Below, piece by piece: positions 1,120 through 56,979 of a DNA stretch of 64,000 nt. The translations under genes were made by a program, and so were the position numbers. Positions within the stretch are counted from its first letter, which is position 1. Every line of letters begins with the position of its first letter. The notes under the pieces are model-generated. The model was not told the origin of the DNA. It ran no database searches and saw only the letters and a list, made by a program, of their open reading frames with translations. The stretch is from Patescibacteria group bacterium (lineage in GTDB: Bacteria; Patescibacteriota; Minisyncoccia; Phycocordibacterales; CAIZLB01). The stretch lies in contig JAZKJG010000001.1 in NCBI GenBank assembly GCA_040384445.1, positions 71,650-135,649 on the forward strand, in the 5' to 3' direction.

Positions 1120-2217
1120 TTATCGAGTTTTTTTTGCAATGAAAACCCATGTCTTCAAGAAGATAAATGTAAAGACGAAACAAAGCCCTGTTGCAAGAAT
1201 CACACTCGCGATATCATATATTCCAAATATTGATGTAAACACATATGTCAGTGATACGTTTACCAAAAGACTTGCAATCGTCACAGTGTAGAATTTTGCC
1301 ATTTCTTGTACCCCCACTTTTCTTTGCTTAAATGTAAACATAGAGTTTAAGATAAAGCCTGAAACCGTTCCAAGTAGATATGTAGAAGCTTTCACAAGTA
1401 CATAGTGTGAAGCGAATGTAGGATTAATTCGAGTGAGGAACACATAGGCAGCAACATCTACGATTGTATTGAATACTCCAATGAGTGCGAAAGTAAAAAA
1501 TTGTCGCTTTACTTGTTTTCCCAAATCTCCAACAAAAAGATTGAATACCTCCTTAAGCGCACGCATGATTACTTTGATATTTGCCCCTGTTGCATTTCCT
1601 TGTGTTCTAGGAAGGTGAGTAACTGGTACTTCCTTTATATCAACACCACGTTGTGTTAATGCAATAAGTACTTCCGCACTAATCATTGCCCCCTGACTTG
1701 TAATCTTTATATCTTTAATTGTATCTCGTTTAAAGAGCTTGAACGCACAGTCGATATCAATTACTCGTAAACCAAACAAAATTCTGTTTAGGATGTTCCA
1801 TCCTTTTGCATTTAACAATCTCATTTTTGAATCTTGTCTATCGTGTCTATATCCAATTACAACATCATGAGTTGCTGTGTGAGGTGTGAGGAGGGTGAGT
1901 TCTTGTAAATCAAACTGCAAATCAGCATCACTAAAAAAGATGTAATCGTGTTTTGCATTTGTAAATCCAGTAATCAATGCTCCACCGTATCCTTTATTTG
2001 CCTCATGAGAAATGAGAATAAGATTATCACCATATGTTGATTTCAAATTCTGTACTACTTCAGCAGTCTTGTCTTTACTTGCGTCATTTACGATAATAAT
2101 TTCGTATGTATCAGTAACGAGCTTTGCAGCTGTAACTGCTTGATGAATTGTTTCTTCGATATTTAATTCTTCGTTATATGCCGGAAAAAATATTGAGAGT
2201 GATGAAAGTGTAGTCAT
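1120..2217 (-). CDS. GT2 family polyprenol-phosphate glycosyltransferase (DPM1/ArnC-like) with a C-terminal GtrA-like membrane domain
   Basis: IIIVNDASKDKT and FFSDADLQ (DXD) motifs. The C-terminal 120 aa is hydrophobic and GtrA-like. Confidence 0.85.
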   Translation of the reverse strand: MTTLSSLSIFFPAYNEELNIEETIHQAVTAAKLVTDTYEIIIVNDASKDKTAEVVQNLKSTYGDNLILISHEANKGYGGALITGFTNAKHDYIFFSDADLQFDLQELTLLTPHTATHDVVIGYRHDRQDSKMRLLNAKGWNILNRILFGLRVIDIDCAFKLFKRDTIKDIKITSQGAMISAEVLIALTQRGVDIKEVPVTHLPRTQGNATGANIKVIMRALKEVFNLFVGDLGKQVKRQFFTFALIGVFNTIVDVAAYVFLTRINPTFASHYVLVKASTYLLGTVSGFILNSMFTFKQRKVGVQEMAKFYTVTIASLLVNVSLTYVFTSIFGIYDIASVILATGLCFVFTFIFLKTWVFIAKKTR

Positions 2218-2222
2218 AAATG

Positions 2223-3455
2223 TTAGTTAGTTTTTGGTAATGGATATAATTGAGGGAGCAAATCGTTGTATAGCGCTAATCCGAACCATGCCCAATTTTT
2301 ATCATAATATCCAAGTTCTCGTGTCCAGTTAAATGTATCTACGTTGTATAATGATTCTAGCTTTTTGTAATATACTTCTTTAGCGATCTCTGGATCAGTA
2401 ATCATGAAATATCCAATTAATCCTCCATACATTGCTGGAGTTTCTGACCATTCTGCAATTTGTCCATCATGTGTATAGTTTGCATACACTCGCTTTCGTG
2501 AATGCCATTCTTCAGTAAAGAACGCCATGTCTTGTAAAAGTTTTGTGGCTCTCGGTTCATTGAACCATTTTGCATCAAGAGCGAGTCTCCATGGAAGTCG
2601 AAGAGCGTCATAACTGAAGTTTGTTTTTAATGTCGTTGTTCCTGTGATCGCCGCGATTTTTCCTGTTTTTTTATCTACCGTAATCCAATCGGATGGAATT
2701 CCTGCACTCGTGTCTGTGTCGAGCGGAAGTACCATGTTGTCTTCAATTAGATCGTAACTTGAATCTACTAGCCCCATCCAATCATGTCTTGGATCTACCT
2801 CTTCAAAAATTCTGTATGCATATGGTGCGAGATAAGATGGATTTACAATAATAGTTTTTTTCTTTTTATCACTTTTCTCTAGATCGTTTGCCGCTAAGAA
2901 AGGTCTCCCATTAATAACAACAACTTCTTTATCCCAAATATCATTGATGATTGTCATGGCATCCCCAAAGTATGTGTCATCGTTCCATCGTTCTGAAGCA
3001 AATAGGAGAGCGAGTGCAATATCAACATCAGCATCTGTTGCTGAATTATTTCCACCTTCTTGAGTTAAGATTCCATATGTACCATTTTTTCTTTGCCCAA
3101 ATTTCCATGCAAATAGACTATCGTTCGAATGCTGTAAGTTATCTTTAGTCCATTGCCATGCTGTATCAAATGTTTCTCTGTCATTAACCCAAACTGCACG
3201 AAGGAGGGTATAACTCTGACCTTCTGATGTTGTAATAAAATTTTGCTCTTTATCAAGTGCTCGAAGTGACTCCGGTTCAAGATTCTCTCCTTTATATCGA
3301 TGCCACAAAGATTCGATCATATCTCGAGGTGAGAATACGGGCTGATTCGCTTCTGCTCGTCGTTTGATAATGATTGCGGTAGAGGCTGCGATCAGGATCA
3401 CAATCACAAGAATAAGCAGGTTTCGTAATGAGATTTTAGGTAGGGTTATTTGCAT
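2223..3455 (-). CDS. Glycoside hydrolase family 8 (endoglucanase/chitosanase-like), N-terminally membrane-anchored
   Basis: Exact match to the GH8 signature A-[ST]-D-[AG]-D-x2-[IM]-A-x-[SA]-...-[FW] in ATDADVDIALALLFASERW. A TSEGQSY motif is present. There is an N-terminal TM helix. Confidence 0.85.
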   Translation of the reverse strand: MQITLPKISLRNLLILVIVILIAASTAIIIKRRAEANQPVFSPRDMIESLWHRYKGENLEPESLRALDKEQNFITTSEGQSYTLLRAVWVNDRETFDTAWQWTKDNLQHSNDSLFAWKFGQRKNGTYGILTQEGGNNSATDADVDIALALLFASERWNDDTYFGDAMTIINDIWDKEVVVINGRPFLAANDLEKSDKKKKTIIVNPSYLAPYAYRIFEEVDPRHDWMGLVDSSYDLIEDNMVLPLDTDTSAGIPSDWITVDKKTGKIAAITGTTTLKTNFSYDALRLPWRLALDAKWFNEPRATKLLQDMAFFTEEWHSRKRVYANYTHDGQIAEWSETPAMYGGLIGYFMITDPEIAKEVYYKKLESLYNVDTFNWTRELGYYDKNWAWFGLALYNDLLPQLYPLPKTN

Positions 3456-6625: not shown

Positions 6626-8023
6626 ATGAAAAAGCTCACAATACTCTTGGCTTGCTGCTTAGCTCTAGTGCTCTATATATATGTAGAAGCGCCTACTAAA
6701 ATTACGCCCAAAAATGAGACGAAGACTATATCTCTAAACTTCGTAGGAGACATACTCGCTGCGAGAACCATAGAAACGGCAATGCGTAAGAATGGCTATG
6801 ATTATCCATTTGCAAAGATCTCGAAGGAACTAGCAGATGCTGATATTACGTTTGCTAACCTGGAAACACCGCTCATCGCAGGTAATACTACTCCAGGTGG
6901 GAATACTGTGTTCCGAGCCGATACTGCCTTTGCAGACGCATTAAAGAGAACTGGAATTGATATTGTATCTCTGGCCAATAACCACATGAAGGATCAAGGT
7001 GAGAAAGGTATTGTAAGTACTAAGGAAGCATTGGACAAAGCGGGAGTAGTATACGCAGGGGCTGGATTAAGTCTTGATGAAGCGAGATCTTTGAGGATAG
7101 TCGAAGCTAATGGAATTAAAGTTGGATATCTTGCATATAACGACACTGATGTGGTTCCACAAAGTACCTATGCAAATGACTCTCCTCAATCTGGTACGAA
7201 TACTATGGATACAAGACGACTTAAAGAGGATATTGAGAAAGCTCGTTCTCAAGTAAATGTTGTGATTATATCAATGCACTCTGGTACAGAGTATGTGACA
7301 GAAAAGCCTAATACACGTCAAACTACCTTTGCTCGAGCCGCGATCGACTATGGGGCAGACATGGTAATCGGGCATCATCCTCATGTATTACAGCCAATGG
7401 AAATATATAAAAATAAATACATTTTCTATAGTCTCGGAAACTTTGTATTTGATCAAATCATTGCCCCGACTAAAGAAAGTGCATTATTAAAAATGTGGAT
7501 AACTTTCTCAAAGACGGATTCTGGGGTGTGGAAAATTGATAATGCAAAACCTGAAATATTACCACTCGTAATTCAAAATTTTCAACCTCAAAAAACTACC
7601 GATATTTCAAAGAAAAAACTTATTATGAGTCGGTTTAATTCTAGTCCAGCTATTCTTACTTTAGGAGAAGAAATCATATTTGCAGAATTGGCAACAACTA
7701 CCGAAGCTCGGACCCTTGGTCTATCTGGAAGAAAAAAATTACCAGATCGGACAGGTTTGCTGTTTGTCTTTGAGGCTCAAGGGATGCATGGAATATGGAT
7801 GAAGGATATGTTGTTCCCAATTGATATCTATTGGTTCGACCAATCATTTAAGCTTATAGATAAAAGACTTTCTGTCAGTCCTGAAACATATCCAGATGTC
7901 TTTTATCCAAAGCTCAAGGCCACCTATGTCCTTGAGACAAAAGCAGGTCTCTTAGACCCTATGTCCTTGACACAGGACTTGACGGGGGAGTTGACGTTAC
8001 TCGAGTCATATGATAAAAGATAA
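6626..8023 (+). CDS. CapA/PGA_cap family metallophosphatase fused to a C-terminal DUF192 (COG1430) domain, signal-anchored
   Basis: N-terminal NFVGDILAART...GAGLSLDEARS matches CapA. C-terminal GLLFVFEAQGMHGIWMKDMLFPIDIYWFD...YVLETKAG is a strong DUF192 pattern. Confidence 0.75.
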   Translation: MKKLTILLACCLALVLYIYVEAPTKITPKNETKTISLNFVGDILAARTIETAMRKNGYDYPFAKISKELADADITFANLETPLIAGNTTPGGNTVFRADTAFADALKRTGIDIVSLANNHMKDQGEKGIVSTKEALDKAGVVYAGAGLSLDEARSLRIVEANGIKVGYLAYNDTDVVPQSTYANDSPQSGTNTMDTRRLKEDIEKARSQVNVVIISMHSGTEYVTEKPNTRQTTFARAAIDYGADMVIGHHPHVLQPMEIYKNKYIFYSLGNFVFDQIIAPTKESALLKMWITFSKTDSGVWKIDNAKPEILPLVIQNFQPQKTTDISKKKLIMSRFNSSPAILTLGEEIIFAELATTTEARTLGLSGRKKLPDRTGLLFVFEAQGMHGIWMKDMLFPIDIYWFDQSFKLIDKRLSVSPETYPDVFYPKLKATYVLETKAGLLDPMSLTQDLTGELTLLESYDKR

Positions 8024-39772: not shown

Positions 39773-40321
39773 ATGCGGAGGTGTGTTTTATATATACAGA
39801 AAGAAATACCTACCATGTGCCTCATAACCGTTCCAAAGGCCGCTGATATTGAACAACAAGCACGTTACCGGCATGACTATCAATTCGGTCGCCCGACTGG
39901 TGGTCATCGCCTTGACGTGGATAAAGTCGCAGCTTGTTCACAACCTGTGCCCAGTGTTGGTCTCGAGTTCCTCTCTCGACCCACAATGGCAGCACTTGTG
40001 AAAGCAGAAGAGAAGGATATCAAGGAGCACCTGTGCCACTTTGATCTCCTTGCCCTTCGGGATCAGTTTGATGATTTGCCGATGTCGTTCAGGCAGCGGT
40101 TACATACCTGTGAGCTCTATGCGGCTCGTGGTATCGCTCTTGTTGGTTCAACTTTGGTCATTCCGTACATTACCGCGACCAACCTCAAACCGTTTGTTGG
40201 TTTTGCCAGCGTTCTGCAGATTCTCGAAAATCGGCACATCCTTGGTAGAATCAGTCCTCGCCGTGAGGGGACACGCATGCAGAGTTCACATCTCCATCTT
40301 GTGAACAGCAGTCGAAATTAA
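39773..40321 (+). CDS. Hypothetical protein (GC-rich islet)
   Basis: ORF with about 50% GC and no known motif. Confidence 0.35.
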   Translation: MRRCVLYIQKEIPTMCLITVPKAADIEQQARYRHDYQFGRPTGGHRLDVDKVAACSQPVPSVGLEFLSRPTMAALVKAEEKDIKEHLCHFDLLALRDQFDDLPMSFRQRLHTCELYAARGIALVGSTLVIPYITATNLKPFVGFASVLQILENRHILGRISPRREGTRMQSSHLHLVNSSRN

Positions 40322-41515: not shown

Positions 41516-42142
41516 ATGTTCAGTCACTATTTTAATATTATCCTGAATTACGCAGAATCAGGATCTTCAGTTCTCGTTGATTATTTATATCCAATTGTTT
41601 TTTTGTCCGCTCTTTCAGAATCCACCCCGATACTTGGTACCTTTACACCGGGAACTCTATTTTTACTTTTCTTTGGATATACCGCTTCTGTAAATGCTAT
41701 TAATCTCGCTCTAGTAGTACTTGTTGCAACACTTGGAGCAATAGTTGGGGATGTGCTTGGATATTTACTTGGTCGTCATGCTACGGGTTGGATGTTACGA
41801 CATAAAAAGATTTTAAAAGAAGCGCATATTGAACAAGGACGTGCATTTTTCAGTAAACATGGAGGGAAGAGTATTTTGATTGGAAGATTCGTTGGTCCGA
41901 TTCGACCTATTGTGCCACTGATTGCTGGAAGTATTGGAATGAGTATGAGAAAGTTTTTGTTCTGGAATATTCTTGGAGCGTTTTTGTGGGCGACATTGTA
42001 TGTCACAATTGGATTTTTCTTTGGCGCGTATGCGAGAGATATTGAAAAAGTTGTGTCTGATACTGGATTAGTGATTTCTGTAATTATTTTTATTGGTGCG
42101 GTTGTGTATTATTTTAAATATATGAAAAACCAGACGAAGTAG
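41516..42142 (+). CDS. DedA family membrane protein
   Basis: DedA/SNARE-associated signature GAIVGDVLGYLLGRH...GRFVGPIRPIVPLIAG. Confidence 0.85.
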   Translation: MFSHYFNIILNYAESGSSVLVDYLYPIVFLSALSESTPILGTFTPGTLFLLFFGYTASVNAINLALVVLVATLGAIVGDVLGYLLGRHATGWMLRHKKILKEAHIEQGRAFFSKHGGKSILIGRFVGPIRPIVPLIAGSIGMSMRKFLFWNILGAFLWATLYVTIGFFFGAYARDIEKVVSDTGLVISVIIFIGAVVYYFKYMKNQTK

Positions 42143-42211: not shown

Positions 42212-45200
42212 ATGTCTATAAAAAATTTAAAGAAATGCGCATTTATTTTTGTTGGAATAGTGCTTGTGTTTTACGGAGAAAAAACTTTTGCCGCATACCC
42301 ACTTGGTAACGAAGCTGTATTTTATCATTTTGAAGAAGCTGCAACTGCAACATCAACAAACAGTGGAAGTGGTGGTTCTGCATATGATGGAACTTTTGCT
42401 GGAGCAGCAAGTACAACTGCACTTGTTAAGCGTTTTGGTGCGCAAAGTGCATCATTTGGAGAAACAGGTGATTACATGAAAACGTATTTTGCAAGTGGTA
42501 CAAATCCTACTGCACAATCATTATCAGTAAGTATGTGGGTATATAAAAAAGAGGCATCAAATGGCTGTCCTGCTGGTGGTGATGATCATTTTTTCGGATC
42601 TAGTGGACAACCGTCAGGATCACGGTTTTATTTACGATGTACTGGAGGATTTTGGGGTAGTCGTTTTGGAGCAGCTGCAGCTGCAAACTCAACAGTGACT
42701 GGTGTGACACACCAGGGGTGGGACCATATTGTGCTCGTGTTTGATGCAACAAATGACACACCAAAATTATATGTAAACAATGTTCTCAGGGCAACATCAC
42801 CGCTCGTGAGCTCATACACAATCACAAATGCATTTTTTGTCGGAGGTGTGAATGATACCATTACAACTCCAGGTGTCCTCAGTTCATCTGAAAATGCGGG
42901 TGCAAATATTGATGAAGTTGCAATATATACAACAGCACTTTCTTTAAGTGATATTACAACTTTATATAAAGCAGGTGATCTCGTTGCTCCTGTAATTTCG
43001 TCTATTGCAACATCAACCGTTTCTGCAACATCAACAACGATTTCGTGGACTACAGATGAATCTGGATCAACACAGGTTGAATATGGATTAACAGGATCAT
43101 ACGGAAGTCTAACGACAGAAACTGATACAACAACATTTGTGACAAGTCACTCAGCAACATTGTCAGGGTTAGCTGAAAATACGTTATATTATTATCGTGT
43201 TATTTCACGAGACCCAACAGGTGCAACTGCAACTTCATCACAAGGAACATTTACTTCCGGATCAATGACTGCCCCTGGTCAACCTTCTGCATTGAGTGTG
43301 ATTCCTTATGAAGGTAGAGCACATCTTACCTGGACAGCAGCGACCGGTGATCTGACTGACTACTTGGTAGAATACAAATTATCAAGTGATGGTGGATGGA
43401 CCACTTTTACAGATGGTGTATCTATCGCAACTACTACCATGGTTACAGGTTTGGTAAATAATTTCGCATATGATTTTAGAGTCACAGCAAGTAATCAATC
43501 TACTCCAGGCCCAGTATCAAGTACAGTGTCAACAACTCCTGTATATAGAGTGACTTTTGCAGGTTCTACTCCCGCTCACTTGTCTGTGATCACGGGATCA
43601 TCTGTAACAGTATCTGCATCTACTACACTCCCTTCGTTTTCATTTGCTTCAAGTACTCAAACTCTTCGACTAGAAACAGCCGGAGGATCTTTGGTGAGTC
43701 AAGTTTCTACAACTACGCGGTACGGAGATTATAATCTTACGCATCTTATAAATACGCTGGCCGATTCTGATCTTTCACTGGCAGGCAACTCTTCGGGTAT
43801 GGCATACGTTGGAACAACTGATACATTGTTTATAGTGCATAATGCAGCGGTTGGCTCAAATTCAACAATTGATGAAGTTGATAAAAATGGAACGCTCATT
43901 CGATCAATTACATGTACACTGTGTGGGGACATTGAAAGTATCGTATTGCTATCATCTGTTGCTTCAACAACCGCTGGTGGGTTTGATCATACGTTCATGA
44001 TTGGAACTGAAAATAATACATCGAGCGCTGAAATATTTAGAGTAGTTATTTATTCAACAGGAACAACTGCAGTTAATCGTTTAGATTATTTTAATATAGG
44101 AGTCTCGCACGCTGCAAACGGAGGACTTGAGGGTATTGCATATAATTCAACATCAGGAGTGTTCTATGTTGCTCGAGAACTTACGACACCTGCGTTATAT
44201 GAAGTAACACTGGGTGCAGGGCATGCTGCATCTGCGGTTCAAATATGTTCAAACTTGACACTCGGAGCTACAATTAGTGATTTCTCTGACCTTTCATTTA
44301 AAAATAATATTTTGTATGCCTTAAGTGAGAATACAAATCCAAGTAAGCTGGTGCCGATAAATATTACGAGCACAAGTACATGTACACTTGTTGACAGTAA
44401 TGAAAATGGGACTGCAAGTAGTAGTGATACAGGAGACTGGTTAACTTCAGTTCCTGTAGGAGTTACTGATCAAGCAGAGGGTGTGGTATGGGATGCTACA
44501 GGAGATGTTTTGTATGTTTTAGGTGAAGCTGATTTTTTAGCAAAATATAGAACTACTGCATTTAATGCTCAACACACATTTACAGGATTAGCAGACGGAA
44601 ACTATGTTTTAAAAGCATCCTTTACTGATACGAATGGAATCACATCATCATCAACAGATAGATTATTTACAATTAGTAATGATAGTATTTCACCTGTAAT
44701 TTCATCTATTGCGTCATCATCTATCACATCAACATCAGCTACTCTAACTTGGGGGACAAATGAATCAACCGTTTCTTCTGTGTCTTATGGAACAACAACT
44801 GGTTACGGTATGACGGCTACGTCATCTGCAACATCCACGCATCAAGTCTTGTTAACAGGTTTGGTACCGGAAACAGCATATCATTTTAGAGTATTTGCTG
44901 CAGATCAATCTTCAAACACTTCGCTCTCAGCTGATTATACGTTTACAACATCTGTAGCTCCAGATGTAACTGCTCCAAGTATTTCTAATATTGCATCAAG
45001 CACGACCGATACAAGCGTAACAATTGCATGGACAACTGATGAAAACTCAGACAGTCAGGTTGAGTACGGATTAACATCTTCATATACTTCGTCTTCAACT
45101 CTTGATACCAATGCAACAACTTCACACTCAGTTGTAATCACGAGTTTAGCACCAGCTACCGTGTACCATTTTAGAATCATATCAAAGGATACAGCACTTA

Positions 45201-46648
45201 ACCTTGCAACAACATCTGATTATAACGTGACAACATCTGCTGACAGTGTTGCTCCTGTTATTTCTTTACCTTCTGCTTCAATCAATTCTGGAACATCTGC
45301 AATTATTTCTTGGAATACAAATGAGAATGCAACAAGCTTGGTAAGATATGGTTTGACGGCAACATACACAGCAACAACAAGTTTAGGCGTTGCAACAACG
45401 GCAACACATAGTGTAAGTTTGTCTGATTTGAAAGCGTGTACACAATATCATTATCAGATTTTAACAACCGACGCCGTGGGAAATAGTTCGACTACAACGG
45501 ACTCTCTGTTTACAACATCTGGCTGTGCAGGAGGTACTTCGGTTCAGGAGGTCAATACTGTTGCAATAAGTAATTCAACTGGAGATATAGCAACGACTAC
45601 ATCAGCGTCGACAGGTAATACTGTTGTCTTGGATATTCCTGCAGGATACTCAACTTCATCAAGTGTTATTTTTCAGATCAAACAAGTTGAGGATCTTGCT
45701 GTGATTTCTGGAACAGGCGGGGTGAGTGGTAAGAGTATTGTAGGAGATCAGATGTATGATCTACAGGCGTATCTGAATGCCTCAACAAGTATGACTGCAT
45801 TTAATGCAACTCTTACAATCAATATGAGTTACCGAACTATTGATGCGTCTGGATATGACGAGTCATCATTTAAGATATATAGATATGATGGGGTATCGTG
45901 GACTGAATTGCCAAGCTGTGTAGTTGATGTAACACAGAACACGGTAACATGTGAGACTACTTATTTTTCAACTTTTGGATTGTTTGGAATACCAAACTCT
46001 GTAGTGGCCCCGACGGTAATCAACTCTTCAACAGGGGGTAGTGGTGTAATGTATTCGCATGTTGCTCAAAATTTGCCAACATTAACAAGTACAACCTCAA
46101 CAAGATATGTTTTCATAAGAGATTTAAAGGTGGGAAGTGTAGGAGATGATGTTCGGTTGTTGCAACAATTTCTAAACAATAGCGGATATATCGTTGCAAA
46201 AGTTGGGGTACCAGGATCATCAGGAAAAGAAACAAATGTATTTGGAAGTGCAACAAAAGCTGCCCTTATGCGATTTCAATTTTCACAGATAGGGATTAAT
46301 AGAAATGGTGTGGTTGATGTTAAAACAAGAGCCATATTGAACACTGGAGTGTTTGCATGGACTCCTATAAGTACGTCTGGAACATCTCAATTTGTGAAAA
46401 CATTATCTTTTGGTAATGTATCGTCTGATGTAAAAAGATTGCAACAATTCCTAAACTCAAGTGGGTATACAGTTTCTGCTTTTGGAGCAGGATCTGTTGG
46501 CAAAGAGACTACGTTGTTTGGATCTGCAACTCGAGCTGCTGTTATTAAATTTCAGTTAACTAATGGACTTGTGCAGACCGCTAAAGATAAGGAGTATGGA
46601 AAATTTGGTCCTCAAACAATATTGAAAATAAATGAATTGATAAAGTAG
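42212..46648 (+). CDS. Giant secreted, cell-wall-associated protein: signal peptide, LamG/ConA-like lectin domain, 2x FN3, a beta-propeller-like central region, 3x FN3, then 2x peptidoglycan-binding (PG_binding_1) domains
   Basis: Signal peptide MSIKNLKKCAFIFVGIVLVFYGEKTFA. A LamG-like block is at aa 30-240. The FN3 repeats follow the pattern PVISSIA...ISWTT.E...QVEYGLT..Y.......T.HS..L..L...T.Y.YR. The C-terminal pair of LQQFLN..GY......G..GKET..FGSAT.AA...FQ PG-binding motifs is clear. Confidence 0.85.
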   Translation: MSIKNLKKCAFIFVGIVLVFYGEKTFAAYPLGNEAVFYHFEEAATATSTNSGSGGSAYDGTFAGAASTTALVKRFGAQSASFGETGDYMKTYFASGTNPTAQSLSVSMWVYKKEASNGCPAGGDDHFFGSSGQPSGSRFYLRCTGGFWGSRFGAAAAANSTVTGVTHQGWDHIVLVFDATNDTPKLYVNNVLRATSPLVSSYTITNAFFVGGVNDTITTPGVLSSSENAGANIDEVAIYTTALSLSDITTLYKAGDLVAPVISSIATSTVSATSTTISWTTDESGSTQVEYGLTGSYGSLTTETDTTTFVTSHSATLSGLAENTLYYYRVISRDPTGATATSSQGTFTSGSMTAPGQPSALSVIPYEGRAHLTWTAATGDLTDYLVEYKLSSDGGWTTFTDGVSIATTTMVTGLVNNFAYDFRVTASNQSTPGPVSSTVSTTPVYRVTFAGSTPAHLSVITGSSVTVSASTTLPSFSFASSTQTLRLETAGGSLVSQVSTTTRYGDYNLTHLINTLADSDLSLAGNSSGMAYVGTTDTLFIVHNAAVGSNSTIDEVDKNGTLIRSITCTLCGDIESIVLLSSVASTTAGGFDHTFMIGTENNTSSAEIFRVVIYSTGTTAVNRLDYFNIGVSHAANGGLEGIAYNSTSGVFYVARELTTPALYEVTLGAGHAASAVQICSNLTLGATISDFSDLSFKNNILYALSENTNPSKLVPINITSTSTCTLVDSNENGTASSSDTGDWLTSVPVGVTDQAEGVVWDATGDVLYVLGEADFLAKYRTTAFNAQHTFTGLADGNYVLKASFTDTNGITSSSTDRLFTISNDSISPVISSIASSSITSTSATLTWGTNESTVSSVSYGTTTGYGMTATSSATSTHQVLLTGLVPETAYHFRVFAADQSSNTSLSADYTFTTSVAPDVTAPSISNIASSTTDTSVTIAWTTDENSDSQVEYGLTSSYTSSSTLDTNATTSHSVVITSLAPATVYHFRIISKDTALNLATTSDYNVTTSADSVAPVISLPSASINSGTSAIISWNTNENATSLVRYGLTATYTATTSLGVATTATHSVSLSDLKACTQYHYQILTTDAVGNSSTTTDSLFTTSGCAGGTSVQEVNTVAISNSTGDIATTTSASTGNTVVLDIPAGYSTSSSVIFQIKQVEDLAVISGTGGVSGKSIVGDQMYDLQAYLNASTSMTAFNATLTINMSYRTIDASGYDESSFKIYRYDGVSWTELPSCVVDVTQNTVTCETTYFSTFGLFGIPNSVVAPTVINSSTGGSGVMYSHVAQNLPTLTSTTSTRYVFIRDLKVGSVGDDVRLLQQFLNNSGYIVAKVGVPGSSGKETNVFGSATKAALMRFQFSQIGINRNGVVDVKTRAILNTGVFAWTPISTSGTSQFVKTLSFGNVSSDVKRLQQFLNSSGYTVSAFGAGSVGKETTLFGSATRAAVIKFQLTNGLVQTAKDKEYGKFGPQTILKINELIK

Positions 46649-46696: not shown

Positions 46697-47494
46697 TTAG
46701 GGACGATATAACTGTCGATACTCGACAGAATCAATTGAGAAAATATTAAAGAATGCTTCCAAAGCACGTCTTTGTGTACTCAGGTCTTTGATTAAATCTT
46801 CAATTGAGTTGAAACTAAAATCTGGATCCTTAAACAGTTGAGGCAAAATTTCCTGTCGAACACCTGCTTTGATTTGCATAATCCTGCAATACGAATCTAA
46901 CTCCTCCCATTTGTGATGCAAAATTAACTCTTCAAATGCTGAGGCGTTTCGATATGAGACATTTAGATTATCAAACGTTGTCAGAATCATCTTATTACGA
47001 ATTAATGCTCTGAATGCTTTATCGATGCCAAAATGTGTAATTCCTAAGAGTTCAGAAATATTTCGTTTCCACCTTTTATCTTTCATCCAGCCTAAGGCCA
47101 TGAAAATATGGATAGCTTCAATAGGTGGAGTTATTTTAGCTGTCCCTTCTAGAGCATCGACAATAAACAAATGACTTACTTTCTCAGCATAATTGAAAAG
47201 AGTGTGAACCAGTTTTGTTGCTGGGAGTCGTGTCCCACAGAGTAGTTTATCAGTTTCGGTCGGCTCATCTTCTCGATAATAACTCTGCATTAAAAACCGT
47301 TGTACGTACTCACCTGGATCAGATCTCAGAAAGGAACAGGCAGTTCTTTCTGAACCCGCTTCTTTTGTAGCGAGTGCTCTAAGGATTGAAATGAACAAGT
47401 TGATTAACGTAATCGACTTAAAATTTGGTCCTACGTTGAGAGGTATAATTGTGAGAGCAGAACCAATCACAGGGCTAAAGTGAAATTTTTTCAT
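46697..47494 (-). CDS. Hypothetical protein
   Basis: 265-aa ORF with no recognised domain. Confidence 0.4.
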   Translation of the reverse strand: MKKFHFSPVIGSALTIIPLNVGPNFKSITLINLFISILRALATKEAGSERTACSFLRSDPGEYVQRFLMQSYYREDEPTETDKLLCGTRLPATKLVHTLFNYAEKVSHLFIVDALEGTAKITPPIEAIHIFMALGWMKDKRWKRNISELLGITHFGIDKAFRALIRNKMILTTFDNLNVSYRNASAFEELILHHKWEELDSYCRIMQIKAGVRQEILPQLFKDPDFSFNSIEDLIKDLSTQRRALEAFFNIFSIDSVEYRQLYRP

Positions 47495-49930: not shown

Positions 49931-50473
49931 ATGATAGTGATACTCAGTTTTGGTCCCAGGTATTTGCCGGACACACTTAGCGAAAAACTAGTTCCTCAAC
50001 TAGAAGAAACATTCCACGGTTTGGACATCCTTGTGTTTAATCCAGATTATGTGATCAAACATCTGGATGCAACATACAAGGATCTCAGACAAAGAGTCCA
50101 GGTAATGAGAGACGGAGGAAAAGCTTTGTTCCGAAGAGATTTTGTCCAAATTAGAAAAATATTTAGGCTCGCTCTTCATTCTGAAAGGGATATGCTCATT
50201 GTGGAAGGGTTCATAGTGGGAATACGAACTCTTCGTGAGTGGGAGGGAATTCGCTGGCGACGAGCTACACAATTCTCCTTCTTTGATTACATCGATAACC
50301 CTCCGAAAGCAACTCCTCAAAAGGAAAGATATCACAAGAAGATGACAAGTTACCTTAAGAACAGGAGGACAGACAGAATACAGGGCATTGTCTCATTTCG
50401 TAATCTACACAGCAACGTAGTTAGTATCTTACGAGCAAAAGGCGCTCGTGAGCTGACCGCTGTGTATGCATGA
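49931..50473 (+). CDS. Hypothetical protein (GC-elevated)
   Basis: ORF only. A hairpin at about 50480-50515 follows. Confidence 0.35.
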   Translation: MIVILSFGPRYLPDTLSEKLVPQLEETFHGLDILVFNPDYVIKHLDATYKDLRQRVQVMRDGGKALFRRDFVQIRKIFRLALHSERDMLIVEGFIVGIRTLREWEGIRWRRATQFSFFDYIDNPPKATPQKERYHKKMTSYLKNRRTDRIQGIVSFRNLHSNVVSILRAKGARELTAVYA

Positions 50474-54735: not shown

Positions 54736-55821
54736 ATGAGAATTGTTCTTGTTCTAAAACCGTATGCAATTGAAGTGTATTCAGAAGAAAATTCTGTGTA
54801 CATGCTTGTTGGTATTGAACACAGTACTCGTATAGAAAATGAAAGTCTGACAGATTACGAGAAGCGTATGATTTTTATTGCAAAAGATTTATGTAGTGAT
54901 ATGCGTGCAAGTCCTTTTTTTAAAGCTGTTGCAAAAAAAGTAGAGAGTATACAAATTATCCTCTGCGCACCATGGTGTACGTATGATGTTGTACAAGTAG
55001 AAAAGGATTTTGGAAAGCCTGTAAAAATTGATGAAAAATTACTCGCTTCAATGAAAATAAAGAAAAGTGAGGACGAAGTGTTTGTTGTGGAGTCATATAC
55101 GTCGAATATGATGTTAAACGGATATACTGTAAAACATATGGCAGGTCATATGGCTCAGCATGTACATTTTCAGTATGTACATATTTATGCAAATGCATCT
55201 TTCGCCACATCTTTGATTAAATCCATGGAAAGTATTTTTCATACACATAAAGTTGTAGTTAAATCAGTGTACGGATTAGTTGAGGGAATGGCCTCAGCGG
55301 GCGATAAGGCATACACACATGAAATGAGAATTATTCTCGAAGAGGAAAGTGTAGATATTGCATATATCTCAGAAGGTTTGCATATTGTAAATACATTTGT
55401 ACCGCATAGTTATATGCATGTTGAAGATGATATTGCGATGAAATTATCTTCAAACCACGAAGTTGTAGGTAAAATACTACAATCACGATATGAATCATTT
55501 CTGACAAATACAGGAGTAAACGGAGTAGTTGATAAAAATGCTAAGAAACTTTGGCCTGATTTGGATGTTCAAACTCAAGCAATGATTAATGCATCAATAG
55601 AAGAAAGTATTGAAAAAGTTCTTGTATCTATTCGGAATTGTATTGATGGCATGGGTGCTGAATACACAAAAGATTTTATTTCTGTACGAATATTCTGCCT
55701 GCATAAGCGTCTGCTTGAGACATATGGGTTTGAACTAAGCCAGAAAATTCATAATGACCCTTATATTGCAATGAAAATTCATGTAACAGCGGAGACTATT
55801 ACAGTTAACAACATATTCTAG
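54736..55821 (+). CDS. Hypothetical protein, possibly a divergent actin/FtsA-like ATPase fold
   Basis: ORF only. The N-terminal beta-hairpin-like RIVLVLKPYAIEVY...YMLVG is a weak hint. Confidence 0.35.
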   Translation: MRIVLVLKPYAIEVYSEENSVYMLVGIEHSTRIENESLTDYEKRMIFIAKDLCSDMRASPFFKAVAKKVESIQIILCAPWCTYDVVQVEKDFGKPVKIDEKLLASMKIKKSEDEVFVVESYTSNMMLNGYTVKHMAGHMAQHVHFQYVHIYANASFATSLIKSMESIFHTHKVVVKSVYGLVEGMASAGDKAYTHEMRIILEEESVDIAYISEGLHIVNTFVPHSYMHVEDDIAMKLSSNHEVVGKILQSRYESFLTNTGVNGVVDKNAKKLWPDLDVQTQAMINASIEESIEKVLVSIRNCIDGMGAEYTKDFISVRIFCLHKRLLETYGFELSQKIHNDPYIAMKIHVTAETITVNNIF

Positions 55822-55836
55822 TATACTAATAGCTAT

Positions 55837-56979
55837 ATGTACGGAGACATAATTCCACCAAAAAAGAAATATTCTGAACCATCGGAGGCTTTGCTTCAAC
55901 ACGAAAGAGAGGAGATTCATTTTACGCCTATTAAAAGAGGAGCATATCAAGAACAAAAAAATAAAAAAATTCCTGCAATACTAACTGCTCTTGCGATTCT
56001 TGTTGTTGCGCTCGGTGTGTACCATAAGATTTTTAATGGAACTACAATTAGCTTAACTCCAGTTACGACTCGATTTGAAATTCAACAGAAAATTCCTTTG
56101 ATTCTACAAAATAGAGAAAAGGACTCTCTCACATATAGTTTGGTGTATGTTCCCTCAAGTACCTCAACACGTAATCCGTTTGCGGCGGAAGCAACTTCAT
56201 CAGCGCCTGTGATTACACAAGATGCTGGAGTATACACATTAACTTCGACTTCAACAGGTTTGACGAAGCGTGTTCGTCTTGTAAATAAAACAAGTGGCGC
56301 CGTAGCACTTCGTGCAACAACTCGATTTGATGTTGATGAAGTTGTGTATACACTTGATGCGGCAGCAAGTAATCCTCCTACACCAAAAGCAGAACTGGAT
56401 TTGATCACATCTTCAACAACATATAAAGTTGTAGGTTTTAAAGATACAGCATCATACAATTTAATTTACGCTATCCCAGATACAACAAACGCACCTACTG
56501 TTGCAGAAAACGCAGCTGTCTCAACAATGCCACCAGCAGATGTCTTGGCTTTGATGCCTGATGATGCAATTGCACTTCAGAAGAGTACTATATATGACAA
56601 ATTACTTGATCAGTCTGCAATTGTTGTGTTTGATGAAAGAACATTGGAAGAATTTTTAAATACTGCAAATATACAAGTGCAAGAATATTTCAAAGTTCTT
56701 AAACCTTTTGGCACAAGTATTTCGTATAATATTACTATTGTTGATTATACTCTTGTTACATCTCCAGAGTCAGGTAAACCAACTGCACTTACTGGTTTAA
56801 CACTTGAGATAACTCCAATAATTGAAAATAGTTTAGTCTCAGGACAGTTTGCTGGATTTAAAAAAGAAACAATGGAGAAGATTCAGAAACAGGTTGCAGA
56901 GTATATAGTGTCTGATGTGTCGTATACTCCATTCTGGTCTAAGTCTGTTGCGGTGGAGGAGAAGATCACAGTTAAGTAA
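55837..56979 (+). CDS. Hypothetical single-pass membrane protein with a Thr/Ser-rich extracytoplasmic domain
   Basis: TM at about aa 45-65 (IPAILTALAILVVALGVY). Confidence 0.4.
   Translation: MYGDIIPPKKKYSEPSEALLQHEREEIHFTPIKRGAYQEQKNKKIPAILTALAILVVALGVYHKIFNGTTISLTPVTTRFEIQQKIPLILQNREKDSLTYSLVYVPSSTSTRNPFAAEATSSAPVITQDAGVYTLTSTSTGLTKRVRLVNKTSGAVALRATTRFDVDEVVYTLDAAASNPPTPKAELDLITSSTTYKVVGFKDTASYNLIYAIPDTTNAPTVAENAAVSTMPPADVLALMPDDAIALQKSTIYDKLLDQSAIVVFDERTLEEFLNTANIQVQEYFKVLKPFGTSISYNITIVDYTLVTSPESGKPTALTGLTLEITPIIENSLVSGQFAGFKKETMEKIQKQVAEYIVSDVSYTPFWSKSVAVEEKITVK

Follow-up and report, generated by a model that had tools for sequence, protein, structure and literature searches.

GAIN_B-like domains named MAIN, which occur in bacteria and archaea, were described by Brogan and Rudner in a preprint of May 2026 (10.64898/2026.05.12.724683). 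They self-cleave between the Phe and the Ser of a conserved H-F-S motif, and the resulting fragments remain non-covalently associated. The order is always the same in these proteins, of which Bacillus subtilis YfkN is the prototype, namely, a signal peptide, adhesion or enzymatic domains, the MAIN domain, and a wall anchor. MAIN proteins are often enzymes, and the structure-based tables of the same work label the MAIN domain 'GPS' or 'ZU5' (10.64898/2026.05.12.724683). The survey used RefSeq Select, and Patescibacteria are not listed in it (10.64898/2026.05.12.724683). In GAIN domains, cleavage occurs in a loop with a sharp kink, between the final two strands, after canonical Cys and Trp residues (PMC3321182). 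With regard to epibiotic bacteria, glycan-binding, FN3 or VCBS envelope proteins have been found essential for epibiotic growth in Southlakia epibionticum (PMC10633639). In this section, we focus on a surface-protein gene carried by a 64,000-nucleotide stretch of DNA, hereafter the window, from a Patescibacteria group bacterium (assembly GCA_040384445.1, contig JAZKJG010000001.1, positions 71,650 to 135,649 of the forward strand). The gene is an uninterrupted open reading frame (ORF) at 42212..46648 (+) that encodes a protein of 1478 residues. This protein joins the recently described releasable, wall-tethered (MAIN-type) surface proteins, as a variant from the candidate phyla radiation (CPR) that is anchored by PG_binding_1 and whose motif lacks the His.

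The protein is composed, from its N-terminus, of a signal peptide, a LamG domain, two FN3 units, and a YjiK-type beta-propeller placed between two half immunoglobulin-like (Ig-like) segments. Its C-terminal half consists of three FN3 units, a GAIN_B/ZU5-like sandwich, a disordered linker, and two PG_binding_1 domains. A preliminary description of the gene had proposed a secreted, lectin- and propeller-containing protein tethered by peptidoglycan-binding domains, and this structural reading, here for a CPR bacterium of small genome, is supported by profile matches and models; the domains that it had named (Laminin_G_3, FN3, SdiA-regulated, PG_binding_1) were all matched. The best explanation of the whole, in which we place rather better than even confidence, is a Sec-exported, wall-tethered surface protein with a MAIN-like, potentially self-cleaving module. 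The PG_binding_1 pair would hold the protein non-covalently on the producer's own peptidoglycan, and the FN3 units would form a stalk projecting the LamG and propeller head, which would bind, or act on, a glycan or another ligand carried by a host cell or a substrate. Through an N-O acyl shift, the GAIN-like module would undergo self-cleavage at F1252|S1253, a site located in the turn that separates its last two strands, and the ectodomain of about 1225 residues would then stay on the 226-residue anchor fragment only via the embedded strand STFGLFGI. Mechanical load could pull the ectodomain off, the module acting as a pre-cut, force-sensitive joint. Self-cleavage is the least certain of these steps, because the His at position -2 is replaced by Tyr, and we give it somewhat less than an even chance.

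The GAIN-like module, residues 1104-1263 (45521..46000, +), was missed by the preliminary description, which had assigned the last 300 residues to two PG_binding_1 domains. These two domains are indeed present, in about the last 180 residues only, the rest being a disordered linker and the GAIN/ZU5-like sandwich. A Pfam scan of residues 1104-1263 gave no match. In a model of the C-terminal 375 residues, built with a 16-sequence alignment (A2), this segment is predicted to form a beta-sandwich, with a block-mean predicted local distance difference test (pLDDT) score of 69 over its first ten residues and of 78-95 beyond them. It is followed by a Ser/Thr/Gly-rich linker (residues 1264-1297, 46001..46102, +) predicted to be disordered (pLDDT below 50, model residues 161-194). 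The top eight Foldseek matches in the PDB were all GAIN (BAI3 4dlo, E=2.9e-5; BAI2 8oek) or ankyrin ZU5 domains, in agreement with the 'GPS' and 'ZU5' labels given to MAIN domains. The query-normalised template modelling (TM) score was 0.28-0.29 for the 375-residue model, which corresponds by rough rescaling to about 0.6-0.7 over the 160-residue domain. The modelled fold is thus a GAIN_B-type twisted beta-sandwich, and it shares with ZU5 and with the GPS-containing GAIN subdomain B of adhesion G-protein-coupled receptors (GPCRs) and polycystins the presence of two small helices.

The positions conserved in this module also recall those domains. Its invariant residues are C1105, W1230, C1236, C1247, F1252, S1253, F1258 and G1259, with a Trp and a Cys pair upstream of F-S, as in the GPS motif. 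The F1252-S1253 codons (45965..45970, +) encode the putative scissile bond (C-E-T-T-Y-F|S-T-F-G-L-F-G), and the model places just these two residues, both non-strand, between its last two strands (model residues 141-148 and 151-158). A Ser nucleophile following a hydrophobic residue is therefore predicted in a tight turn between the last two strands, as in MAIN proteins, and, as in GAIN and ZU5 domains, the candidate bond lies in the kinked turn before the last strand, preceded by conserved Trp and Cys. The F-S pair is invariant in 160 of 160 relatives. The module differs from the GAIN domains of adhesion GPCRs in lacking the helical subdomain A and a seven-transmembrane partner, in having a single conserved Cys pair where they have two disulfides, and in its x-F-S motif instead of H-L-T/S; its sequence similarity to them is sub-threshold (GPS E at least 0.1).

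Several points weigh against the reading of a releasable adhesin. The catalytic-His position (-2) is occupied by Tyr1251, so that the H-x-S/T motif of cleaving domains is absent, and the residue found there in the 160 relatives is N in 50, H in 31, A in 23, G in 18, S in 15, Q in 14 and Y in 1. No other invariant His, Asp or Glu is present in the module, and neither GPS nor any solved GAIN domain was matched significantly at the sequence level. Moreover, the GAIN domain of BAI3 folds without cleaving (PMC3321182), and nine members of the protein family lack the GAIN-like module altogether, from which it follows that release is not essential to the function of the head. As for the head itself, the literature searched establishes no function for YjiK/PF06977 propellers, and no conserved gene neighbourhood hinting at a function was found in the loci examined. 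With Tyr1251 at this position, and with His in only 31 of the 160 relatives, self-cleavage of this protein is putative. In this respect, the module departs from MAIN domains, where the His is catalytic, and in this clade His is carried by a minority.

These features raise the question of whether the module might be a non-cleaving spacer that links stalk and anchor, the protein then being a permanently tethered adhesin or enzyme. We regard this as the strongest competitor, if a less probable one than the MAIN-like reading as a whole. The replacement of the catalytic His, the lack of an alternative invariant base, the existence of uncleaved GAIN domains such as that of BAI3, and the short family members that dispense with the module would all be expected of such a spacer. 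However, a purely structural role would tolerate substitution in the turn where F-S is strictly kept, and the module always immediately precedes an anchor. Furthermore, ZU5/FIIND-type autoproteolysis is reported to occur at an S-F|S site, without His at -2 (PMC3210808). It follows that this clade can do without the His, or else that many of its members are non-cleaving.

The closest sequence links of the module lead to archaea. GPS (PF01825) was the most recurrent weak Pfam match, found in 3 out of 24 module members with a sub-threshold best E-value of 0.1, and comparison of the module profile with PDB sequences gave chance-level matches only, none of them to GAIN. The NCBIfam model TIGR04213 (PGF-pre-PGF), which describes an archaeal domain preceding the PGF-CTERM anchor, was matched by 20 of the 24 (best E=3.4e-6); all matches except the best fall below the curated cut-off of 28 bits, the module of the present protein scoring 20.6 bits. 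In tblastn searches of plasmids with the module, archaeal proteins only were retrieved. The Halorussus plasmid NZ_CP119806.1 (L023) carries, at about 3001-3237, a protein with '...YRYNE...TAETPHFSTYTVL', and Methanomethylovorans pMETHO01 (L024) encodes at 1249-3330 an annotated PGF-pre-PGF protein with '...QRYDGYGWEEL...TDGFSSFAITG', followed by a C-terminal transmembrane anchor. In these archaeal proteins, a PGF-type anchor is preceded by 'TPHFSTY' or 'TDGFSSFAI'. Archaeal PGF-pre-PGF proteins are the nearest sequence relatives of the module outside the CPR, and they resemble it in the [H/G]-F-S-x-[FY] motif and in the position directly before a C-terminal anchor, but their anchor is a PGF-CTERM-type transmembrane segment, and the host lineage differs. 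This suggests that TIGR04213 represents the archaeal branch of a MAIN/GAIN-like superfamily.

The distribution of the module was assessed by an exhaustive search of 1.84 billion representative proteins with its hidden Markov model profile. Matches numbered 7136 at E<=1e-3, 1441 at E<=1e-10 and 684 at E<=1e-30, the last figure corresponding to at least 684 protein clusters, and among the top 150, the domain always lies within a few hundred residues of the C-terminus. Named carriers belong to Parcubacteria, Paceibacterota, Taylorbacteria, Falkowbacteria and Daviesbacteria. A word-indexed protein search with the same profile yielded no more than 8 fragments, a shortfall probably due to the predominance of Ser/Thr-rich words. 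Associated with PG_binding domains, the module forms a cassette that carries other heads as well, namely, in paralogous proteins, a purple acid phosphatase (P0042) or SASA/GDSL esterases (P0032, P0039 and P0081), and elsewhere LamG alone.

The head of the present protein begins with a LamG/concanavalin-A-like lectin domain (residues 29-258, 42296..42985, +). Laminin_G_3 matches residues 86-248 with E=9.9e-14 and 52.2 bits (cut-off 27.6) when the N-terminal 263 residues are scanned alone, which bears out the lectin domain of the preliminary description; its absence from the list of matches in the full-length 1478-residue Pfam scan (window 42212-43000) is a method artefact. The YjiK/SdiA-regulated-type beta-propeller spans residues 516-778 (43757..44545, +) and is identified by Pfam, by a family profile and by Foldseek. 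SdiA-regulated (PF06977) matches residues 523-709 with 67.1 bits in the full protein and 72.1 bits in the segment, for a cut-off of 21. The name 'SdiA-regulated' is irrelevant to a CPR bacterium. A propeller-like core had been proposed, with residues 450-800 as the region to be modelled, and the AlphaFold model of residues 445-826, built with a 19-sequence alignment (A1) of this segment, indeed shows a propeller fold with a pLDDT of 86.6 and a predicted TM score of 0.86. Among solved structures, Foldseek ranks E. coli YjiK first, by its C-terminal domain (3qqz; E=4e-11, TM score 0.78 on the target, 20% identity). The family profile reaches the same structure in the PDB at E=1e-14 over chain residues 11-247; single-sequence PDB searches with the propeller, the C-terminus and the N-terminus gave no useful match, YjiK being found by the family profile only. 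Five repeats are visible in the propeller sequence, and ECOD files 3qqz as 6-bladed.

The propeller is flanked by two segments designated IgA (residues 445-515, 43544..43756, +), which precedes it and is kept in 22 of 22 family members, and IgB (residues 779-826, 44546..44689, +). They may constitute the N-terminal and C-terminal halves of a single Ig-like sandwich. The model has five strands before the propeller and four after it, and IgB gives weak matches to the Y_Y_Y, Big_13 and SdrD_B profiles that cover their C-terminal halves only, homologues carrying a Big_7 call at this place; taken together, these two features suggest that one Ig-like domain carries the propeller as an insertion. The blade signature 'EG-x-x-[YW/D]...L[YF]V..E' is repeated both here and in E. 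coli YjiK (3QQZ). YjiK itself is a short, membrane-associated enterobacterial protein, whereas the propeller described here sits between half Ig-like segments of a long extracellular protein and has four invariant Cys.

With mean identities to homologues of 51% for LamG, 61-63% for IgA-propeller-IgB, 45% for FN3 and 34% for the GAIN-like segment, the propeller is the most conserved part of the protein (63%). Its invariant columns in the 19 sequences of A1 comprise, besides the four Cys, an acidic/His/Asn set (H543, N544, E555, D573, E575, H593, E600, N636, E640, E656, D690, E756 and D761; alignment positions 99-317 for H543-D761). Acidic motifs are common to the propeller and YjiK in the profile alignment. 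Since the invariant acidic, His and Asn residues recur blade by blade in this alignment, the cluster probably forms a conserved, metal-dependent site common with E. coli YjiK.

Such a site gives some weight to another explanation, according to which the head is not an adhesin but a surface metal-dependent hydrolase for nutrient scavenging (a phosphoesterase, or a phytase-like or lactonase-like enzyme), with LamG targeting the substrate. The propeller could equally be a Ca-dependent enzyme. The strict conservation of the constellation from H543 to D761 in the most conserved segment of the protein would fit catalysis, homologue P0019 has a Phytase-like Pfam call, and enzymes are found both on the GAIN-like/PG_binding cassette, in the phosphatase and esterases mentioned above, and among MAIN proteins. 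Foldseek also retrieved the Bacillus beta-propeller phytase structures 1qlg and 1poo, but these weaker matches (E about 2e-5, TM score about 0.4) remain at the level of any propeller. Moreover, no catalysis by YjiK/SdiA-regulated propellers was found in the literature searched, and the combination of LamG, FN3 and Ig domains is typical of adhesins. We consider a hydrolase rather unlikely.

At the C-terminus, the two PG_binding_1 domains (residues 1298-1385 and 1393-1478; 46103..46645, +) are identified by the Pfam scan (PF01471; two stretches, E=2.4e-23, 75-82 bits for a cut-off of 23) and are modelled as three-helix bundles with a pLDDT of 81-97. The region weakly matches the PG-binding domain of 4LPQ. 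The domain map thus reads signal peptide, ectodomain, module and surface anchor, which is the blueprint of MAIN proteins. In the segment after the module, 100 of the 160 relatives have PG_binding_1 (one domain in 81, two in 19). About half of the remaining 60 have a C-terminal transmembrane helix with a basic tail, a few are SLH-like, and some ten end with a Cys/Trp motif. These last proteins (P0135, P0157, P0162, P0179, P0185, P0200, P0244, P0245, P0247 and P0267) have Cys/Trp-rich extreme C-termini of the type 'KK.FCILWWCF', 'CFLWWCW' or 'CFWFICW', which may represent an unrecognised sorting or anchoring signal of Patescibacteria.

Because relatives hold a transmembrane helix or an SLH-like segment at the equivalent position, the PG_binding_1 pair would anchor the protein to its own envelope, and this positional equivalence is the best argument for such an orientation. 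One may also imagine that these domains target the peptidoglycan of a host or prey cell, the protein being a secreted bridging or attack factor, given that PG_binding_1 is a generic peptidoglycan-binding fold and that CPR bacteria live attached to other cells. Nevertheless, the transmembrane and SLH-like C-termini of the relatives can serve as anchors in the producer only, the order of ectodomain, GAIN-like module and anchor follows the MAIN blueprint, and Pfam scans of the protein revealed no lytic domain, which makes this alternative improbable. As an anchor, PG_binding_1 distinguishes the protein from MAIN proteins described so far, where it has only 3 counts among about 15,000, the anchors being mostly sortase signals, SLH or CW_binding. 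The same proteins share other domains with ours, including fn3, Laminin_G_3 and even SdiA-regulated propellers (Cohnella WP_120975393 and Paenibacillaceae WP_129381595), and the patescibacterial origin is a further difference from the surveyed set.

The five FN3-like repeats of the preliminary description are confirmed by Pfam, where fn3 scores 87.8 bits over 5 stretches and Pur_ac_phosph_N-type FN3 scores 114.4 bits over 4. Units 1 and 2 (residues 259-352 and 353-444; 42986..43543, +) correspond to Pur_ac_phosph_N at residues 267-348 and fn3 at residues 358-441, and units 3-5 (residues 827-915, 916-1010 and 1011-1103; 44690..45520, +), which match fn3 and Pur_ac_phosph_N, would make up the stalk. 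The DNA of the latter had been described as tandem repeats that could drive length variation, a proposal that did not withstand analysis. Tandem Repeats Finder detected no array with a period near 280 bp at 44690-45520, and the best DNA repeats in the FN3 region are 79-nucleotide stretches of about 70% identity. In pairwise comparison, units 3-5 show 43-49% protein identity and 62-67% DNA identity, their longest shared exact word being 10-13 nucleotides; judging from this divergence, they are old duplications that offer no substrate for slippage or frequent recombination, and repeat-driven length variation is accordingly unsupported. The number of FN3 units between propeller and anchor does range from 0 to 4 among homologues; this variation is, by sequence identity (40-64%), one across species and not across strains. 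Hence, the view of the FN3 region as a contingency locus, whose DNA repeats would change the length of the stalk from strain to strain by recombination or slippage, has scarcely any probability left and is already contradicted by the lack of an array, the diverged units and the species-level distance of homologues differing in FN3 number.

Mapping of query segments on the best 120 homologues gave the family architecture LamG (or DUF2341) - FN3 - IgA - propeller - IgB - FN3(0-4) - (GAIN-like module) - PG_binding_1(1-2). When one genome for each GTDB species was scanned for this pattern, 18 loci came out, every one of them labelled Patescibacteria (Saccharibacteria, Parcubacteria and Peribacteria in the submitters' labels), and three genomes have two paralogues. 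On these sequences, the core LamG-FN3-Ig/propeller module is a family seen here only in Patescibacteria. The short forms without the GAIN-like module (P0008, P0010-P0013, P0015, P0016 and P0018; 865-1250 residues) have the propeller/Ig block and 0-2 FN3 units, followed directly by PG_binding_1. P0016 is located on a 762-kb contig and is thus not truncated.

The N-terminus of the protein, as read by eye from the translation, resembles a Sec signal peptide (residues 1-27, MSIKNLKKCAFIFVGIVLVFYGEKTFA|A; 42212..42292, +), with a KNLKK basic n-region, a 13-residue hydrophobic core and a TFA|A cleavage-type motif. The ORF and the secretion signal thus agree with the 1478-residue secreted protein first proposed. 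The product is rich in Thr (15%) and Ser (14%), and is identical to the NCBI entry MES2985601.1, 'MAG: fibronectin type III domain-containing protein [Patescibacteria group bacterium]', from a 314-kb contig. This entry is a singleton at 90% identity, the protein collection containing no variant at least 90% identical. The guanine and cytosine (GC) content of the gene (0.39-0.40) is the same as that of the rest of the window, and its neighbours are housekeeping genes (DedA/VTT, adenylate-kinase-like, HPF, UvrB, oligopeptidase F, Topo I, DnaK and AsnB, and further the tRNA synthetases SerRS and AlaRS, GatB, RpoA, ParB, DprA, Obg and GAPDH); for these two reasons, an origin from a phage or another mobile element was rejected. 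Promoter and terminator scans remained at chance level.

As regards genomic context, neighbours differ in every homologous locus examined, and a conserved gene neighbourhood was rejected, the only recurring neighbour being DedA/VTT in 3 of about 19 distinct loci. This DedA/VTT membrane protein is encoded at 41516-42142 (+), adjoining the surface-protein gene, and adjoins or lies near homologues in two other genomes (L003/L004, 12185-12829; L009, 6465-7091). Nearby ORFs, described as 180-380 residues long, are without Pfam match (46697-47494, -; 49931-50473, +; 39773-40321, +; 54736-56979, +). A counterpart of the 265-residue ORF convergent with the surface-protein gene is absent from all homologous loci. 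The window encodes other envelope- or glycan-related proteins at 1120-3455 (-) and 6626-8023 (+), namely, a GT2-GtrA glycosyltransferase, a GH8 glycoside hydrolase and a PGA_cap-DUF192 fusion protein.

Attachment to host cells, for which the protein had been put forward as a candidate, is plausible by analogy, since the epibiont Southlakia depends on glycan-binding, FN3 or VCBS envelope proteins. The essential adhesin candidates SEML1_0890, SEML1_0891 and SEML1_0315 of this cultivated patescibacterium, itself a CPR epibiont, are likewise large envelope proteins that carry FN3 or lectin-type glycan-binding domains, and targeting of host glycans has been proposed for them (PMC10633639). This likeness is one of description only: the Southlakia proteins have VCBS or dockerin domains, and a propeller, a GAIN-like module or PG_binding_1 is not reported for them. 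Once the GAIN-like module is taken into account, the likely mode of action is no longer that of a fixed adhesin, but that of one which is potentially releasable. A more far-reaching proposal, which we put forward as distinctly speculative and would not expect to hold in full, is that a clade-specific and largely His-less GAIN/MAIN module serves Patescibacteria as a general display-and-release cassette, mainly combined with PG_binding_1, and that the LamG/YjiK-propeller host adhesin described here breaks at F1252|S1253 under load without the canonical His.

How ultrasmall CPR bacteria hold on to their hosts and let go of them is understood for little more than a few cultivated Saccharibacteria, and this family provides a concrete attachment candidate in lineages of the Parcubacteria type, few of whose hosts have been identified. 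Patescibacteria are also added to the range of the just-described MAIN release module, here with PG_binding_1 as a different anchor and with a motif in which the nucleophile is kept and the His usually absent. This raises the question of whether the His is dispensable, or whether the fold is often kept in a non-cleaving state, as in some adhesion GPCRs. In other respects, the protein would offer one of the few contexts able to reveal what YjiK-type propellers bind. If the display-and-release proposal is true, attachment of these bacteria to their hosts, and detachment from them, would be under mechanical control.

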